Source: Candidatus Nomurabacteria bacterium RIFCSPLOWO2_12_FULL_46_14 (GTDB lineage Bacteria; Patescibacteriota; Minisyncoccia; Phycocordibacterales; UBA9973). From it: 32,681 bases of DNA. The DNA is taken from assembly GCA_001786225.1 (NCBI GenBank), contig MFVV01000033.1, positions 3,336 to 36,016 of the forward strand, in the 5' to 3' direction. Below the pieces are notes generated by a model. It was not told where the DNA came from. It did not search any database and saw only the letters and a program-made list of their open reading frames with translations. Of the stretch, positions 21,837 to 28,822 are shown one piece after another. Numbering within the stretch: position 1 is the stretch's first letter; every line of letters begins with the position of its first letter. A program made the position numbers and the translations under genes.

Positions 21837-21910
21837 TAAAACAAAAAAATGTCTTATAAAGGCGTACGCAGGCTGACGAGCCGGCCTTTAGAAGATATTT
21901 TTTTGTTTTA
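21837..21910. terminator. 27-bp AT-rich hairpin with a 20-nt GC-rich loop between convergent genes (bidirectional terminator candidate)
   Basis: 21837..21863 pairs with 21884..21910, with one G.U and one mismatch. The arms touch the stop codons of both jag and the 21908 gene. Confidence 0.55.
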
Positions 21911-23230
21911 TTCTAACTCCAGTTTCCAGAGATAAGAATCTTTTTTGTTGACCAAAAATAGCAGATTCTCGCCGTTCCCCAAGGCAAGCTTTACGCCATC
22001 AATTTTTGCCACCAAACTCAAATCGGCTATCAGACTGGTGTTGCCGGTTTCCACCTCCACCTTCCAGATTTCGTCCGAAAAAGAAACCTCTCCCTGGTAC
22101 CAGGTGTCGGGATAAGTGAAGCCGGTGGCTGACTTCGGCGCCGCGCAATACAGAATTTCACTCCCTCGACCCCAAACGCATTTCTCCGCCAGGGTTTGAA
22201 TGCCTAAAGCGGTGGATTCCCGGCTTTCAATTCTATAGACATTAAGCCTCAGGTTGCTGTTGCTCCAAAGAATCATTTTGCCGTCCGGACTTGCAAGAGT
22301 GGTCAGGCCGTTTATGTCGCCGAAAATCCGGCTGAAGTTTTTTGTGTCGGGGTTGAGCGCGTAAACATGGCCCGCCGTGGCGTAAGAGGGCTTGGTGGCG
22401 AGGGTAATCATCTTGGCGCTTGGCCAATATGATGTCCATTCGGTAAAGGGGGAATCAAACACTACGGTTTTCTTGCCGGTTTTGAGGTCCATTACTGTGC
22501 CGACTACTCCATCTCCGGCCGGAGTCAGATAAAATATTTTCGTGGCGTCAGGCGAGAGGCTCAAATCCGAAATATTCTCCGACAAGAAGCTCCCCCGGAC
22601 CTCGTTTTTTTCCAAAGAATCTCCACCCAAAACTTCTTTAGGCAGATTGCCCAAAAATGTTTGGATAGTCTTCTCGTCGCTCTTGAGATAGCGCATAACA
22701 ACCACCTCGCCCTTCAAGCCAAAATGCGCTTCGTAAACTTTCGGGATAAGGGTATCGGTGAACTTGCGCTCCGCTATTTGGTCCACAAACGTCTGGTAAA
22801 TGTTGCCGGTGGCCCGGTCCACATATCTTAAAGCGGGGGCGAATTCCGTGGGGAGCGAAATTGGGTTTTTGGGTAGAGAAGGAGTAGCGCCCCCTTCCTC
22901 TCCTTGGGAGAGGGCCGGGGTGAGGTTAATTTCTTTGTATCTTTCTTTAAGGAATAGAGTATAACCGGCTACCGGAACGTTTGAGACTCTAGTTAACTTT
23001 TTAGCCGCCTCGGATAGTTCGTCGGGTTCGTAGCCGGATATATCTTCCGGCGGGGTCGTTGCGGTGGGTTTAGACGAGCTTTGGCCGAAAGGATTGAAGT
23101 CGGAGAAGAAATTGGTGCCGCCCTCATTTGGAATAGTCGTGGCTGGCTCCCGGAAATACAAGTAGGCGAAAAATCCAGCCGTCAGAATGACCAGAATGAT
23201 AACTATTAAAATCAAATTTCTTCGGGACAT
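21908..23230 (-). CDS. membrane-anchored beta-propeller-like protein (TolB/PD40-like repeats), last gene of the secretion operon
   Basis: The ATG at 23230 was chosen because the ORF-track start at 23254 is a TTG. TM anchor LILIVIILVILTAGFFAYLYF. Repeated LSPDATKIFYLTP / ASPDGKMILWSNS motifs are typical of PD40-type blades. Confidence 0.65.
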   Translation of the reverse strand: MSRRNLILIVIILVILTAGFFAYLYFREPATTIPNEGGTNFFSDFNPFGQSSSKPTATTPPEDISGYEPDELSEAAKKLTRVSNVPVAGYTLFLKERYKEINLTPALSQGEEGGATPSLPKNPISLPTEFAPALRYVDRATGNIYQTFVDQIAERKFTDTLIPKVYEAHFGLKGEVVVMRYLKSDEKTIQTFLGNLPKEVLGGDSLEKNEVRGSFLSENISDLSLSPDATKIFYLTPAGDGVVGTVMDLKTGKKTVVFDSPFTEWTSYWPSAKMITLATKPSYATAGHVYALNPDTKNFSRIFGDINGLTTLASPDGKMILWSNSNLRLNVYRIESRESTALGIQTLAEKCVWGRGSEILYCAAPKSATGFTYPDTWYQGEVSFSDEIWKVEVETGNTSLIADLSLVAKIDGVKLALGNGENLLFLVNKKDSYLWKLELE

Positions 23231-23235
23231 GAATT

Positions 23236-24201
23236 TTATGATTGCACATGCCAATGGTCGCCTTCGTCAAAAAACAGCATACCGTCTTTCCTATACCAGT
23301 TTTCCTTCAACTTCTCGCCGCTTCGGATATACTGATTTAGCGCGGGAGTCCCGGTATTTCGTAAATCCACCGTGGGACTTCCTGGCCGGTGGGAAGTATT
23401 GCCGGAGGGGCCGCCATGTAGCCAGAACTCTGTGCCGCCCGTTAAGGTTAACTCACAAGTCGGACAATTGCTACGAATCATGTTAATATATGCCAAACTA
23501 AGACCCCTGGTGGAAGTGCAGTTACTGTCCCCAATATTTCGGCATTCATTATTTTTTTTGCCTATAGGTAAAGGAACTTGTGCTTGGCCAGAGGCCACAG
23601 CCCAATCATCCCCGCGCTTCATGCCGTTTTTGTATCTGCCTTGGGCGTCAGTGGTTTGAGGAATATCGTCGTCTATGACAACTTCAATTGTTTGCTTTTT
23701 TATTTTAACATCCGTTTCCAAGAGGTCGGGATTGATGGTAAAGAGTATGGTGTAAGCTCCGAGAGCGAGCAATAGGCCGAAAATCGCGTTGCGGATCCGC
23801 TCCTTGGCGTGCTCCTTGCTGGAGATAAGCTCACTGGTCATATATTCCAAGCCTCCGGCCACAATCATAACCATAGCGAGCACCGCACAGACGCCAATGA
23901 ATATTTTTATCATTAGGTTTAAGTATCGGCCTATGGAGTTAGGATTGGCCGGGTCATCTGCCGGGTTGAACCTTATGTATTCCCCTCCCACACAGTTCGG
24001 GTCCGCGGTGTCGGTGCACGGCAAGGGCTCCAGAAAATTATACCTTCGGTCTTGGCACGGAGGATTTAACTCATTTCCAAGCGGCCCGAAACGGCAATCT
24101 TCGTTCGGATCTTCTGCCGAGGCGCTGACCCCGAAGATGGGTGTAAATATCAAAACGCACAAGAGAAATGGAAATATATATTTTAATAATTTATTTTTCA
24201 T
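23236..24201 (-). CDS. T4SS-pilin-like (VirB2/TrbC-type two-TM module) protein fused to a C-terminal LAS/M15-like zinc peptidase domain
   Basis: Signal peptide ending VSASA, then a Cys-rich stretch. The pilin-like core is IGVCAVLAMVMIVAGGLEYMTS...AKERIRNAIFGLLLALGAYTILF. The C-terminal domain has SHRPGSPTVDL (an H-x7-D motif) and a terminal DHWHV (HxH), as in Hedgehog/DD-peptidase-fold cell-wall hydrolases. The ATG at 24201 shares 1 nt with the upstream TGA (TGATG). Confidence 0.6.
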   Translation of the reverse strand: MKNKLLKYIFPFLLCVLIFTPIFGVSASAEDPNEDCRFGPLGNELNPPCQDRRYNFLEPLPCTDTADPNCVGGEYIRFNPADDPANPNSIGRYLNLMIKIFIGVCAVLAMVMIVAGGLEYMTSELISSKEHAKERIRNAIFGLLLALGAYTILFTINPDLLETDVKIKKQTIEVVIDDDIPQTTDAQGRYKNGMKRGDDWAVASGQAQVPLPIGKKNNECRNIGDSNCTSTRGLSLAYINMIRSNCPTCELTLTGGTEFWLHGGPSGNTSHRPGSPTVDLRNTGTPALNQYIRSGEKLKENWYRKDGMLFFDEGDHWHVQS

Positions 24202-25187
24202 CAAAATTGAATAAGCATTTCTTTAGTAATCGGCCGGACGATTTGCTCCCGGTTGTCTATGGTAAGCGAAAGGCGGGACACACCCGAAGAATTTTCTGCC
24301 GCTTTAAGCGGGATAACATTTTTGCGATAGTCTGCGCTCCCCGCCCTCTGGTTATTTATAGACCAGCCAAAGGTCAGTTCTGGCCGGCGGATATCTCGGG
24401 GTGAAATGAAATACGGCGCCGCCAGGATTGTTGCCTCTTCTAGAATGGCGTAATTGTCCGGGAGCGCTCCATCCCAGAGCACACCCAAAGCGCTGTCTAT
24501 TTTATAAAACAATATCTTGGGCGTAAACACGCTTACTCCGACACTGCCTTCGATAGAATATTTCTGGTCGGTGGTGGAAGCGACCACCGATACCGCGCTT
24601 GTGTCTTCCAAATAATCATCCACATAGGTGAAAGAATTCTTGCCATAGCCTGAATCCGCCGCCTGATTGGTGTAATTCTTTTTCCAGGTATAAATCATAT
24701 TTTTGGGATTGACTATCGCGTTCCCCGCCTTTATCTCCGGCATAGCCACAATCTTGATTCCACTCCCAGACATAGGCAAGGCCTTGCCTTTGTAAAAAGG
24801 CGGGACATAAGAGTCGGTAGCTTGCCAGAGGAGGGTCATAATCGCGGGCCGGATGGCCACCCTCTTTTCTATTTGTCCGTCCGGCAGGTAAATCCTCGCT
24901 TCTATCTTGGTTTCAGTGTTAGCGGCTTTGGCCGTGACGGAGAAAGATTTTTTGCCTATTCCGGAGAGAGTCGTTTTGCCGTCCACTAGCCAGTCTATTT
25001 TTACAGTATCCAGATTAGATAAGAAGCTCCCAAGAGTAATGGTTACGTTCTCATACGGTGCTGGGTTCGACGGGGCTACATCTATGAAGATGCTAGTGGA
25101 ATCCACAGCCAGCGCCACCCCACCCCATGCCGTGGCAGACATAATAAAGGCGCCCAGAATAAAAAGTTTCAATCGCATATTGTTCAT
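24201..25187 (-). CDS. secreted beta-rich protein of unknown family
   Basis: 328 aa. Signal/TM LKLFILGAFIMSATAWGGVALA. The rest has alternating beta-strand-like composition in about three Ig-sized modules. No motif recognised. Confidence 0.6.
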   Translation of the reverse strand: MNNMRLKLFILGAFIMSATAWGGVALAVDSTSIFIDVAPSNPAPYENVTITLGSFLSNLDTVKIDWLVDGKTTLSGIGKKSFSVTAKAANTETKIEARIYLPDGQIEKRVAIRPAIMTLLWQATDSYVPPFYKGKALPMSGSGIKIVAMPEIKAGNAIVNPKNMIYTWKKNYTNQAADSGYGKNSFTYVDDYLEDTSAVSVVASTTDQKYSIEGSVGVSVFTPKILFYKIDSALGVLWDGALPDNYAILEEATILAAPYFISPRDIRRPELTFGWSINNQRAGSADYRKNVIPLKAAENSSGVSRLSLTIDNREQIVRPITKEMLIQF

Positions 25188-25203: not shown

Positions 25204-25231
25204 GCGCCTAAAGCCTAGCGCCTAACGCCTA
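25204..25231. repeat. four tandem heptamers NCGCCTA (minus strand TAGGCGN)
   Basis: gcgccta aagccta gcgccta acgccta, with a degenerate fifth unit at 25197..25203. The last unit supplies the VirB4 TAG stop. Confidence 0.8.
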
Positions 25232-27076
25232 TTTCCCCGCCGCTTCCAATTCCGCCTTGGCTTTTCTGATGGATAAAATCTGGGATGGGTCGGAAGTGAT
25301 TATCTGGTCTTCGGTGTAAGAAGCGATTACTTTGATGGCCACGTGCTTGAGCCCCGCGAAAAATATGCCTTCACCCAAGCCGGACTCCAGCAGAAGATAT
25401 TTTTCTTCATCCGTCAGGTGGAAGGTCTCCTTAACCACGTCAATGGCGGTGGGCGACTGGCCCAAGAGTAGGACAATAGAAGAATTGTGGACTATGGGCT
25501 CGCCGTATTCCGACTTCATGAAGTCTCCCGTGTCTTGGGTAATGGTGGCGAGCCCCAGATAATATTTGCGGCCGCGCTTGGCCATAGAGTAAAGAAAGGA
25601 GGCGGTATCCTCGGACTTCATCATCCACCAGGCCTCGTCTATCACCAAGAGGCGCTTCTTCAGGTTTTTGCGGATGGCGTTCCAGATATAGTTCATTACT
25701 ATGTACATAGCTACCGGTTTCAATTCGTCTTCCATATCCCGGACGGAAAAGACGATGAATTTTTTATTGATGTCCACATTGGACGGCTTGTTGAGAAAAG
25801 TTGACCAAGTGCCACGGGTGTACTTTTTCAGCCGTTCTACCACCGAATCACTGCCGTCCATGCCCGCCAGCACCATCTCAAAGTCGGAGAGCAACGGCGG
25901 TTCAATGTTCCCGAAATCCGAATTCGGGGTTATATCTTTGATGGCGTAGGTTTCGGTAATCGCTCGGTCCACCATGGTGTCTTCTTCCGGAGTGAGCCCC
26001 CCGAGCATCAGGCGGAAAAGTTTCACCAGGTTGATGGTGTTGGAACGGAGAACGTCTTCCGCCGTTTCGTCTTCTCGGGGGAGCGGCAGGTCAAAAGGAT
26101 TAATGTGGTGGTCGGAGGAGAGGGAGATGTTGAAGTACCGCCCGCCCACCGCCTCCGCCAGATATTCGTATTCCCGCTCCGGGTCTATGACGATGACATC
26201 CACGTCAAACATCAAAGACCTTAAAATTTCTAATTTTGTGGCATAGGATTTTCCTGAACCAGATTTGGCAAATGTTACGGAGTTATAATTTTCCAGGGAA
26301 AATCTGTCAAAAATGACTAAGCTGGAATTATGCCGGTTGACCCCGTAGAGTATCCCCTTGTCCGAAGTCAGGTCAAAGGAAATGAAAGGGAAAATGCTAG
26401 AGAGCGGCTCGGAGTTAAGTTTCTGGTGAATGCCGAGCAAGTCACTGCCGATGGGGATGACGCTCTTGAAACCCTCCTCTTGCTGGAAGAGAGCGGGTTT
26501 AATGTAGATTAGTTTTGATTCCAAAATAGATTTTATCTCGTTTTCAATTTTAAAAAGCTCCATCTCATTGTCTGCGTAGACGGTGATGTAGACGCCGACG
26601 TCAAACATCTTCTCCTGGGCCTGCATTAGGCTGTCGCGGAGGCCCTCTAGGTCTTGATAGGCAGTGTCTAGCATGGGGTCGCGCACCATGCCTCTGGTCT
26701 CCCGCACATTTATCTGGCTTTGGACTTCGGCTACTTTCTTTTGAAATTGGCGCAGCGCGAGCGAGGTGTCTATGGGATGGATAAAAATGGAAACATCAAA
26801 AATTTTATCCAGATTGATGATGGGCGAGAACCAGTTGTCGGAGAGGAATCTGGGGTAGGAAATTATGAAAAAGGTGCGGGCAATTTTCTCCCCCAGGTTT
26901 ATGGCCTTGGGCTCTATCTTGAGGGCCGAGGGCGCGACCACATCCTGGAGTTCCAGATTGGCCGCCTCGTAAATATCCTCCGGCAAGACGGCCACGGTGG
27001 AGGCCTTGAGCCCTGTTCCCGCGCGTCCCATTATGCTCCCGCCATTTTTCCCTAAAATTTTATCTAAGAATGACAT
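25229..27076 (-). CDS. virB4: VirB4/TrbE/PrgJ-family type IV secretion ATPase
   Basis: 615 aa. Walker A FAKSGSGKSYATK. Walker B KKRLLVIDEAWWMM. Downstream GRKYYLGLATITQ. The N-terminal domain IARTFFIISYPRFLSDNWFSPII is of the Gram-positive VirB4 type. Confidence 0.85.
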   Translation of the reverse strand: MSFLDKILGKNGGSIMGRAGTGLKASTVAVLPEDIYEAANLELQDVVAPSALKIEPKAINLGEKIARTFFIISYPRFLSDNWFSPIINLDKIFDVSIFIHPIDTSLALRQFQKKVAEVQSQINVRETRGMVRDPMLDTAYQDLEGLRDSLMQAQEKMFDVGVYITVYADNEMELFKIENEIKSILESKLIYIKPALFQQEEGFKSVIPIGSDLLGIHQKLNSEPLSSIFPFISFDLTSDKGILYGVNRHNSSLVIFDRFSLENYNSVTFAKSGSGKSYATKLEILRSLMFDVDVIVIDPEREYEYLAEAVGGRYFNISLSSDHHINPFDLPLPREDETAEDVLRSNTINLVKLFRLMLGGLTPEEDTMVDRAITETYAIKDITPNSDFGNIEPPLLSDFEMVLAGMDGSDSVVERLKKYTRGTWSTFLNKPSNVDINKKFIVFSVRDMEDELKPVAMYIVMNYIWNAIRKNLKKRLLVIDEAWWMMKSEDTASFLYSMAKRGRKYYLGLATITQDTGDFMKSEYGEPIVHNSSIVLLLGQSPTAIDVVKETFHLTDEEKYLLLESGLGEGIFFAGLKHVAIKVIASYTEDQIITSDPSQILSIRKAKAELEAAGK

Positions 27077-28226: not shown

Positions 28227-28499
28227 TTAATTAGAATCTTCTTTTAAAATCCCCTGCGCGATATATTTCTTTATAAGCGACTGATATGGCATATCTATTT
28301 CATTTGCACGCTCTTTTACTCTGGCCAATATATGTGACGGCAGGCGCAGAGAAATAGGCTGGGAGGAGGGTTTTAGAGTCGGAAATGAAATTCTCTTAAA
28401 ATCGGAAGGTTCGAAGTTCTTGGCAAGATTAAACTTTCCCCAGAAATCCCGTTCTTTGTTTTCGTCTTTAAACTTTTGAATTTTTATTTTTTTCCTCAT
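28227..28499 (-). CDS. brnA: BrnA-like antitoxin (CopG/RHH-type C-terminus)
   Basis: 90 aa. ISLRLPSHILARVKERANEIDMPYQSLIKKYI is the BrnA pattern. It overlaps the upstream toxin gene by 32 nt. Confidence 0.7.
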   Translation of the reverse strand: MRKKIKIQKFKDENKERDFWGKFNLAKNFEPSDFKRISFPTLKPSSQPISLRLPSHILARVKERANEIDMPYQSLIKKYIAQGILKEDSN

Positions 28500-28806
28500 A
28501 TAATTTATATTCTTTTTGGTTTAGGTCTCTAGCCGAGATGATTCTTACTTTATCTTTCCGAATCGTAAACACTAAGAATAAGAGCCGCTTCTTCTTCGTT
28601 CGACCAATCAAAAGATAGCGTTTTTCTTTTCCGGAATGAAGAGCATCCTTCAATATTTTTTTATTATAATCAAAGAAAACTTCTTCACATTCCTCATCTT
28701 TTACTTTATGCTTCTGATTTTTGCCTTTATTCCCGGAATCCCACTCAAAGCCCGTAAGTTTTTCGAAGTTTTTCCCTGTTTCTATTGTAGCGTCAGACAT
28801 ATACAT
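28468..28806 (-). CDS. brnT: BrnT-family (DUF497) ribonuclease toxin
   Basis: FEWDSGNKGKNQKHKVKDEECEEVFFD...HSGKEKRYLLIGRT...VRIISARDLNQKEYKLY matches DUF497 (feWD..K...N..KH.v...E...vF ... E.R ... iRiISAR). The ORF-track start at 28812 is a TTG; ATGs occur at 28806 and 28800. Confidence 0.75.
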   Translation of the reverse strand: MYMSDATIETGKNFEKLTGFEWDSGNKGKNQKHKVKDEECEEVFFDYNKKILKDALHSGKEKRYLLIGRTKKKRLLFLVFTIRKDKVRIISARDLNQKEYKLYEEKNKNSKV

Positions 28807-28822
28807 TGTCAAGCAGTTTACA

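Follow-up and report, generated by a model that had tools for sequence, protein, structure and literature searches.

A putative LAS-type wall peptidase carried on a pilin-like hairpin in a type IV secretion operon of a Nomurabacteria genome

The window analysed here is a stretch of 32,681 nt from Candidatus Nomurabacteria bacterium RIFCSPLOWO2_12_FULL_46_14 (GCA_001786225.1, MFVV01000033.1:3,336-36,016, forward strand), an ultrasmall and probably host-dependent organism. Within a type IV secretion system (T4SS) operon of this window, a minus strand gene at 23236-24201 encodes a 321-aa protein in which a VirB2/T4SS_pilin-type hairpin is followed by a C-terminal domain with an invariant set of histidine and acidic residues. 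The fusion is probably a pilin-anchored extracytoplasmic zinc peptidase of the lysostaphin/D-Ala-D-Ala peptidase/Sonic hedgehog (LAS) type that cuts peptidoglycan peptides at the T4SS. We infer from the features described below that the domain binds zinc, is catalytic, acts on peptidoglycan and is docked to the T4SS. The preliminary description of this DNA had read the gene as a VirB2-like module joined to a LAS/M15-type peptidase. The two-part architecture was borne out, as the protein comprises a secreted hairpin and a separate, confidently modelled domain of ~145 aa, but membership of M15/VanY was not supported by profile searches.

In the proposed mechanism, with residues numbered on the 321-aa product from the ATG at 24201, the protein would be a secreted bitopic hairpin whose ends lie outside and whose Lys/Arg loop lies inside the cell, flanked by a variable outer region and by the enzyme domain. 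The domain would be a highly divergent new member of the LAS group nearest to the Hedgehog N-domain fold: Zn2+ would be held by H271, D279 and H318, E313 would activate the water, and H262 and H316 would stabilise the transition state. The substrate would most likely be a peptide bond of peptidoglycan, in the stem peptide or in a cross-link. The hairpin would dock the enzyme to the T4SS that is encoded around it, so that the wall would be cut exactly where the machine crosses. Sister species keep the hairpin and swap the head for VanY, NlpC/P60, YkuD, SLT or domains without an assigned family.

Architecture and conserved residues of the fusion protein

The interval 23236-24201 is a real gene and not a chance open reading frame (ORF). 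It coincides with the gene as delimited in the preliminary description, which did not give the strand; the reading strand is minus, and the plus strand of the same interval contains many stops. The translation runs from an ATG at 24201-24199 to a TAA at 23236-23238. An alternative TTG start lies one codon upstream of the ATG, and a public protein collection holds the ATG-started 321-aa product. The ATG overlaps the stop codon of the upstream gene, denoted X (TGATG), and 5 nt separate the TAA from the ATG at 23230 of the downstream gene, denoted Y. In total, 547 homologues of the whole fusion protein were found. The peptides previously quoted for the gene all were recovered in the translation, namely VMIVAGGLEYMTS, AKERIRNAIFGLLLALGAYTILF, SHRPGSPTVDL with its H-x7-D spacing, and the terminal DHWHV. 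The features of the gene are as follows.

23236..24201, minus strand: whole gene, 321-aa fusion protein plus TAA (ORF and translation)
24115..24201, minus strand: signal-peptide-like N-terminus, residues 1-29 (MKNKLL...GVSASA, then ED), as judged from the sequence
23938..24114, minus strand: variable, predicted extracytoplasmic region with four Cys, residues 30-88 (alignment and model)
23725..23937, minus strand: VirB2/T4SS_pilin-type two-helix hairpin, residues 89-159, ending I-N-P-D-L-L (PF18895, NF045849 and model)
23665..23724, minus strand: linker, residues 160-179 (pLDDT <50 at residues 166-174)
23239..23664, minus strand: unannotated C-terminal 'HWH' domain, residues 180-321, 142 aa, putative LAS-like zinc peptidase (AF2, Foldseek and alignment)
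23455..23544, minus strand: four conserved Cys, C220, C228 and C246-x2-C249 (100/100/99/96% in 214 sequences)
23416..23439, minus strand: motif GGTEFWLH with E258, W260 and H262, which aligns with VTEGW...H of Sonic hedgehog (E 97%, W and H 100%)
23365..23394, minus strand: motif S-H271-RPGSPTV-D279 (H-x7-D), proposed first two zinc ligands (H and D 100%)
23248..23265, minus strand: motif E313-GD-H316-W-H318, which is proposed to supply the general base, the catalytic His and the third zinc ligand (E 99%, both His 100%)

Residues 1-29 probably form a Sec signal peptide. The start, MKNKLLKYIFPFLLCVLIFTPIFGVSASA followed by ED, has an n-region rich in Lys, then a hydrophobic core and finally an A-x-A (ASA) site, and a similar hydrophobic start is present in 203 of 214 full-length relatives. 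A lipoprotein reading was rejected as there is no lipobox. The adjoining residues 30-88 were modelled by AlphaFold2 (AF2) with low confidence (predicted local distance difference test, pLDDT, 45-76) and close with a motif, Y-x-(L/F)-L-x-P-L-P, that is conserved in the alignment. In relatives the N-terminal region varies from 40 to 430 aa and bears Ig- or fn3-like repeats in some proteins. Among genus members the median identity before the hairpin is 18%, that is, this region is non-homologous between species.

The AF2 model places helices at residues 90-123 and 127-157, separated by the Lys/Arg-rich loop SELISSKEHAKERIRN. The protein thus has the signal peptide and the two long hydrophobic helices with a short basic loop that mark the VirB2/T4SS_pilin type, and its gene shares a T4SS cluster with virB4 and virB3. 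The NCBIfam model NF045849 for the Mbov_0395 pilin-like family gave the fusion protein a sub-threshold match with E=6e-6. The T4SS_pilin model PF18895 covered residues 95-153 at 23.3 bits, which is below its cut-off of 26.6, and TrbC (PF04956) gave a sub-threshold 13.8 bits. PF18895 also matched 29 of 30 syntenic homologues at E<=0.001, with a best E of 1.6e-10, and is assigned in precomputed annotation to many homologues of the fusion protein. On these sequence features the hairpin is accepted as VirB2/T4SS_pilin-type. As a cleaved signal peptide combined with a basic loop would leave both hairpin ends facing outward, the Cys-rich N-region and the C-terminal domain should be extracytoplasmic.

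The C-terminal domain retrieved only chance hits in Pfam, NCBIfam, PHROGs and the PDB, the best being EutN, talin and Hcp. The Pfam scan was run at E<=10 with the whole protein and with 32 relatives one by one, and the PDB was searched by phmmer and with two profiles. At E<=0.001, a profile of the domain alone collected 1151 clusters at 50% identity, of which 395 had E<=1e-10; as judged from these searches, the domain is a large family without a Pfam model.

Conservation was measured on 214 divergent full-length domain sequences. Residues C220, G224, C228, S230, W260, H262, H271, D279, H316 and H318 are invariant, and E313 (99%), C246 (99%), E258 (97%) and C249 (96%) nearly so. The sole invariant polar residues other than Cys and Ser are H262, H271, D279, H316 and H318, to which E313 may be added at 99%. 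The E313-GD-H316-W-H318 motif lies in the last beta-strand (residues 317-321 in the model), three residues from the C-terminus. Two hallmarks of LAS enzymes are therein present: an H-x-H on a beta-strand, supplied by H316-W-H318, and a Glu shortly before it, E313 being three residues ahead of H316 compared to four in Shh. The four domain Cys presumably form two disulfides or a structural metal site.

Fold of the C-terminal domain and its relation to Hedgehog and VanY

A Foldseek search with the full-length model returned helical hairpins only, and for this reason the domain was modelled alone with 32 homologues. The resulting AF2 model had a pLDDT of 95.5 and a predicted template modelling score (pTM) of 0.87; within the full-length model the pLDDT of the domain also exceeded 90. 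In the PDB, ranks 1-5 were occupied by Indian and Sonic hedgehog N-domains (E 0.1-0.3, template modelling score (TM) 0.40) in alignments that cover the whole domain over ~150 columns. In the viral library BFVD, rank 1 went to a protein of the Microviridae that bears the label 'Sonic hedgehog' (E 5.5e-3, probability 0.89, TM 0.36). The fold had been named beforehand from the motifs and then was ranked first in two libraries, and the matches therefore are counted as real, moderate support. The comparison of fold and profile that had been proposed earlier thus placed Hedgehog-N first in both the PDB and the BFVD, at sub-significant scores and with no hit to an M15 profile. The predicted elements of the domain follow the order helix, strand, His loop, Asp strand, helix, and strands with the Glu and HxH. 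ShhN has the same order of secondary-structure elements.

Mouse Shh binds zinc through H141, D148 and H183 with E177 as catalytic base, and DD-peptidases are defined by H-x6-D and H-x-H (PMC6027127). The residues of the fusion protein were compared with those of human SHH, for which an N-domain sequence 100% identical to 6e1h chain C was used. The series H134, H140-x6-D147 and E176-x3-H180-x-H182 in SHH is matched in the same order by H262, H271-x7-D279 and E313-x2-H316-x-H318 in the fusion protein. The 214-sequence domain alignment next was compared by hhalign with a 21-sequence Hedgehog alignment and with a VanY alignment from related genomes. The Hedgehog comparison always selected ELTLTGGTEFWLHGG..SH..G..VDL against KLRVTEGWDEDGHH..LH.EG..VDI, in which H271/D279 align with SHH H140/D147 across a one-residue insertion. 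With relaxed settings E313/H316/H318 paired collinearly with E176/H180/H182, with a P of only 0.18; five of the six residues and the TE-x-W motif then were collinear with SHH, and H262 fell ~2 positions from H133/H134. Against VanY the same residues paired with the S-x-H-x-x-G-x-x-x-D and E-x-x-H motifs. The arrangement of a LAS zinc site that had been recognised previously in the gene is upheld, as H262, H271-x7-D279, E313 and H316-x-H318 are conserved in LAS order and the best structures are Hedgehog N-domains. Global mode in hhalign produced a nonsense alignment and was set aside, as was a Peptidase_M15_3 alignment from the phylum, where the family occurred in only two of 151 genomes. Bridging through the heads of sibling proteins from four related genomes (G002, G027, G338 and G028) yielded P values of 0.001-0.2, which are small and not decisive.

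The Peptidase M15B/VanY model (PF02557, cut-off 25 bits) did not match the fusion protein or any of 32 relatives at E<=10; the head of the corresponding protein in a sister species (G333), which acted as positive control, scored 41.8 bits. The assignment to VanY/M15 in the preliminary description thus was not sustained: no profile search found Peptidase_M15 or VanY, and hhalign against VanY and Hedgehog gave P values of 0.015-0.37. As the profile and hhalign results are null, the fold matches are sub-significant and the spacing is x7, the domain is LAS-like, closest to Hedgehog/M15A, and not a demonstrable VanY/M15 member. A beta-beta-alpha-metal nuclease also was considered and rejected, as no helix follows the HxH strand and no nuclease folds were among the hits.

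Several findings weigh against a LAS peptidase borne on a pilin. The PF18895 match of the window's own protein is below the Pfam cut-off. The H-x7-D spacing, which is found in the fusion protein and in the alignment, exceeds the H-x6-D of DD-peptidases by one residue. The Foldseek matches are weak (TM 0.36-0.40, root-mean-square deviation 9-11 A, none at E<=0.001), and the top 50 contained no bacterial M15 structure. The usual line for a shared fold is a TM of 0.5. The hhalign comparisons were not significant for VanY (P=0.015-0.024, probability 2-3%) or for Hedgehog (P=0.18-0.37), and profile searches of Pfam, NCBIfam, PHROGs and the PDB gave the domain no LAS family.

Operon context and exchange of the C-terminal head

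The fusion gene is part of a co-directional operon with the order BrnT/BrnA, PrgI/VirB3, TraC/TrsD-like, VirB4, X, fusion gene and Y. Three of its genes are of immediate concern.

25229..27076, minus strand: VirB4-type ATPase, 615 aa (PF19044 E=1.8e-25, AAA_10)
24201..25187, minus strand: gene X, 328 aa, between virB4 and the fusion gene, with a signal peptide and no family match
21908..23230, minus strand: gene Y, ~440 aa, with an N-terminal membrane anchor and a weak TolB-like propeller match (profile scans)

Upstream of BrnT/BrnA are three unclassified genes of 205 aa (cut off by the edge of the window), 770 aa and 303 aa. Past Y, jag and a 247-aa ORF, the position of which is taken by yidC in related loci, are on the other strand, followed by an intervening stretch and by dnaA and dnaN on the minus strand. 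A profile scan of the window revealed no other recognisable wall hydrolase in the operon. Patescibacterial T4SSs have been described as relaxase-less, MPF-FATA-like and origin-proximal (PMC12102498), and the operon in the window matches this description. In four more distant loci the genes run PrgI, TraC-like, VirB4, X, pilin fusion and Y, then jag, yidC or rnpA; dnaA is reached in the two longest of these loci. A gene of 321-334 aa occupies the X position in every same-genus locus that was read; in three of the four distant loci X is one gene of 327-330 aa, and in the fourth (L023) it is represented by two genes of 128 and 235 aa. A cognate downstream immunity gene of the kind found in polymorphic toxin loci was rejected on the grounds that Y is conserved and not variable. 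Homologues of Y at the same position in two loci (L021 and L022) carry PG_binding_1 (PF01471), a further link between the operon and the wall. The BrnT toxin gene, at 28468-28812 on the minus strand of the window, splits the operon between the 303-aa gene and prgI, and a 70%-identical BrnT copy in a sister species (G007, L042:1134-1463) is located between gene X and the pilin fusion; thus, the toxin-antitoxin unit moves within the operon.

The same genome (G000) also harbors a plain T4SS_pilin array away from the virB4 operon (contig C13:2134-4311; locus L001 329-2761, minus strand). Genes of 91, 129, 131 and 140 aa accompany a 274-aa gene with two tandem hairpins, amounting to six pilin modules. 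These plain pilins could make up the bulk of any filament.

The preliminary description had asked whether the fusion is conserved, and it is: the hairpin is present in 232 of 235 family members, and the remaining three, of 116-190 aa, start within or just before the domain. The fusion thus is obligate in close relatives, the exceptions being N-terminally truncated. The distance from the end of the hairpin match to the start of the domain in the 232 relatives is 13-21 aa (10th-90th percentile; range 11-77). A more distant member (E ~1e-10) forms the end of a 1109-aa secreted protein that has no second hydrophobic segment and no hairpin (G340 C4, L088:94-3423). Its gene is ~90 kb from the virB4 of that genome, whose product is 76% identical to VirB4 of the window, and the domain is therefore not strictly confined to pilins. 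In size and layout this protein resembles the published SEML1_0007 of Southlakia. The distribution of the domain is patchy, with occurrences in four of 25 same-genus genomes and in six of 301 genomes sampled across the phylum. By comparison, VirB4 identity is 83-88% within the genus (full-length matches) and 70-78% in other sampled families of the order.

For 30 related genomes, the sequence that follows virB4 was compared. X and Y are conserved wherever this region is readable, and between them there is always the same hairpin with differing ends. Pfam domains above cut-off were found as C-terminal heads in several species: VanY in G333 (41.8 bits), NlpC/P60 in G006 and G009 (33-44 bits), YkuD in G015 (58.3 bits) and SLT_2 in G012 (35.3 bits). 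The head in G332 has a VanY-type terminal motif as in G333. Overall, the 30 syntenic proteins comprised 29 with T4SS_pilin, three with NlpC/P60, two with VanY, three to four of SLT type and one with YkuD; apart from these, only a single Ig-like domain and a single short membrane repeat were recognised. Further heads gave weak CHAP and lysozyme-like hits, and several matched no family. Every recognisable catalytic C-terminal domain in this set acts on peptidoglycan. Median identity within the genus is 61% for the hairpin and 18-19% for the regions before and after it, which are therefore unrelated. The enzyme part is an exchangeable cassette on a conserved hairpin. What might have been taken for an oddity of one gene is the rule in the lineage, where sister slots hold the same hairpin with VanY, NlpC/P60, YkuD or SLT. 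All of the heads that can be named act on peptidoglycan, and the domain in the window carries residues of the LAS type; this domain is most simply read as a peptidoglycan enzyme too.

The domain itself recurs in a 777-aa pilin protein (G029, L058:1022-3355), where it (ITGGTEYWLH...AHWHVD) is followed by SLT (PF01464, 39.3 bits). The head in G002 (L051:1062-2156), with the pattern VTEGWP..H..CHGNGTCLD...AHIHV, gave a pairwise E=1e-4 to ShhN, and Hedgehog proteins accounted for 16 of its 17 PDB hits, all of which were non-significant. Unannotated heads in G027 (L063) and G338 (L057) also look LAS-like, with ITE(A/V)(F/W)PP..H..CH.NGTC.D...PHFS. As judged by these motifs, the heads in G002, G027 and G338 may represent additional, hitherto undescribed branches of this fold. 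Another genome (G026, L052, 1185-2165 and 2202-3191, minus strand) carries tandem pilin fusions with the same hairpin and linker and different heads, one of which is a weak CHAP match (E=0.002). In three genomes of the same taxonomic order, G019 (L060), G336 (L061) and G339 (L055), virB4 is followed by a short pilin gene (124-161 aa) that is headless, and the head is thus dispensable or supplied elsewhere in those genomes.

Alternative readings and known systems

The resemblance to LAS enzymes might be convergent or accidental, with the domain being a different metal enzyme, such as an amidase, an esterase of teichoic acid or S-layer glycan, or a nuclease, or else a structural His/Cys cluster. 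The failure of all sequence-profile tests against LAS families, a TM of ~0.4 that is under the usual 0.5 line, the non-canonical H-x7-D and four invariant Cys that could make a separate metal site are in keeping with this idea. However, two independent structure libraries ranked a Hedgehog-type protein first when that fold had been predicted beforehand from the motifs, five of six invariant residues are collinear with the SHH site, the cassette siblings are wall enzymes, and no nuclease, amidase or other fold was among the Foldseek matches. Moreover, as the HxH is on the last strand without a following helix, a beta-beta-alpha-metal nuclease finger does not fit. Convergence is considered improbable. 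It is likewise improbable that the domain instead has the same fold without enzyme activity, as a zinc-containing binding module or an adhesin or receptor-binding head whose Hedgehog-like 'pseudo-active site' grips a host-surface ligand or a partner subunit, which would make the fusion an adhesive and not a lytic subunit. The nearest structures belong to Hedgehog signalling domains, for which the zinc site traditionally has been regarded as a surface for binding and not for catalysis (PMC6027127), the N-terminal regions of relatives bear Ig- or fn3-like repeats that are typical of adhesins, and the fold matches are too weak to speak on the cleft. Nevertheless, the conservation of E313 (99%) and of the two auxiliary His equals that of the metal ligands, which a site for binding only would not need. 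Drosophila Hh, in comparison, has lost the zinc motif (H-x6-T, H-x-Y) and the Glu, and probably the peptidase activity too (PMC6027127). The recognisable domains in the same slot also are all catalytic peptidoglycan enzymes, and the G029 protein pairs the domain with SLT.

A third alternative accepts the enzyme and questions the hairpin, which could be a mere membrane anchor derived from a pilin gene, with the protein being an ordinary tethered autolysin or wall-maintenance enzyme that has no tie to the T4SS. The sub-threshold pilin-family scores of the fusion protein, the six plain pilin modules on C13 that could build any filament, and the occurrence of the domain on the hairpin-less 1109-aa secreted protein ~90 kb from virB4 in another genome would accord with such an enzyme. 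Yet the T4SS operon includes the fusion gene as a translationally coupled member, and in every locus examined, from relatives with 70-88% VirB4 identity to homologues detected only by profile, its place is after virB4 with one or two small genes between. In addition, the hairpin is kept at 61% identity while both flanks are replaced, which argues that it has a specific partner. A mere anchor is deemed improbable.

For the favored reading of a pilin-anchored LAS-type peptidase, it is about equally probable that the wall which is cut is the cell's own, in a VirB1-type role, or that of the host. Monoderm T4SSs need a hydrolase and the operon is without another one, which would favor the cell's own wall. 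Replacement of both extracellular ends at ~85% VirB4 identity looks like host-facing selection and, with the adhesin-like N-terminal repeats, would favor the host wall; however, any wall-opening enzyme would serve a VirB1 role, so that replacement could be tolerated. With respect to a VirB1-class role, the position in the operon and an outward topology predicted from sequence are supported, and a cleaving activity is predicted on the basis of the conserved motifs, a weak match in fold and the sibling cassettes. A more far-reaching proposal, that the fusion is a true pilin built into or capping a VirB2-type filament of plain pilins to give an 'armed' T4SS pilus that cuts host peptidoglycan at the contact site, is considered unlikely. 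If it were true, the filament would possess two heads, a variable one that resembles an adhesin at the N-terminus and an exchangeable one that cuts the wall at the C-terminus. The rapid exchange of both among species with 85%-identical VirB4 would then reflect matching to different host walls, and the Hedgehog/DD-peptidase fold would include a large bacterial branch (>1000 clusters at 50% identity), specialised for this role, that has gone unrecognised.

The exchange of the head among at least five peptidoglycan-active families provides a concrete, testable biochemical activity for the T4SS, and the finding suggests how an ultrasmall cell might breach a wall, whether its own or that of the host. 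If the fold assignment is correct, the family of at least 1151 clusters would be a deep bacterial branch of the Hedgehog/DD-peptidase fold. A literature search found no published description of a pilin-hydrolase fusion. As far as was searched, the pilin-enzyme fusion, the cassette exchange and the domain family are undescribed; T4SS pilins and T4SS wall hydrolases are each known.

The domain shares with the Hedgehog N-domain and bacterial Hh/DD-peptidases (LAS; MEROPS M15A; HH_signal PF01085, clan Peptidase_MD) the order TE-x-W, His, His-x(n)-Asp, Glu and His-x-His. It differs in its spacings (H-x7-D against H-x6-D, and E-x2-H against E-x3-H), in four extra invariant Cys and an extra beta-hairpin, and in a TM of only ~0.4; furthermore, the calcium-site residues are not evident and there is no significant sequence or profile similarity. 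With VanY/M15B (PF02557) it has in common S-x-H-x-x-G...D and an E-x-x-H-W near the C-terminus, and true VanY is found on the same hairpin at the same position in the sister species G333 and G332. In contrast, VanY has a single final His and a Ser-x-x-Arg substrate motif (SAxR), in place of which the fusion domain has H-x-H and GGTE-x-W, respectively.

Among T4SS components, the VirB1-class hydrolases PrgK of pCF10, TraG of pIP501 and TcpG of pCW3 likewise are membrane-tethered, encoded in T4SS operons and needed for crossing a thick wall, and they often combine glycosidase and peptidase as the G029 protein does with the domain and SLT. However, these enzymes have a plain N-terminal helix as anchor and are separate from the pilin, whereas here the pilin module is the anchor and the head is swapped between species. 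Gram-positive T4SSs generally are without VirB2 (PMC12102498, PMC12857230). Patescibacterial T4SSs have neither relaxase nor coupling protein and possess VirB2-like pilins that are unusual for a monoderm system (PMC10633639, PMC12102498, PMC12857230). These pilins are encoded near virB4, most such genomes are without VirB1, and an enzyme-bearing pilin is not mentioned (PMC12102498); a pilin-borne wall enzyme could explain the apparent absence of VirB1 from most of these genomes. A 2025 T4SS review found the pilins remarkable for a monoderm system and speculated on a conduit, with pilus polymerisation not shown for any Patescibacterial pilin (PMC12857230). The published pilin arrays (PF18895; Wang 2023; Quinonero-Coronel 2025, PMC12102498) belong to the same hairpin family and to the same MPF-FATA-like, relaxase-less type of T4SS near dnaA as the fusion; they differ in being short, at ~100-180 aa, and no enzyme-bearing pilin was described in the literature searched.

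The nearest published counterpart is SEML1_0007 of Southlakia epibionticum ML1, a 1113-aa protein encoded directly downstream of virB4 and classified by transposon sequencing (Tn-seq) as GD/ES/ES, that is, growth-defective/essential (Wang 2023, PMC10633639, Tables S1/S2). Residues 951-1105 are annotated there, on the basis of structure, as ECOD 'Hedgehog/DD-peptidase' on the Sonic hedgehog template 6n7g chain C with probability 0.993 (PMC10633639), and the text of that paper does not discuss the domain (PMC10633639). A search from the domain of the 1109-aa relative, aimed at reaching the Southlakia gene, retrieved only two proteins. Both SEML1_0007 and the fusion gene reside in a T4SS cluster just downstream of virB4, directly so in Southlakia and one gene further in the window, and both products end in an unannotated domain of ~150 aa; the template 6n7g_C also is among the top Foldseek hits of the fusion domain. 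Compared by published annotation and not by sequence, SEML1_0007 differs from the fusion protein in its length of 1113 aa and in that no pilin hairpin is reported for it. Southlakia, unlike the operon described here, also has a separate lysozyme/cysteine-peptidase protein, SEML1_0006, and encodes its pilins in a separate array.

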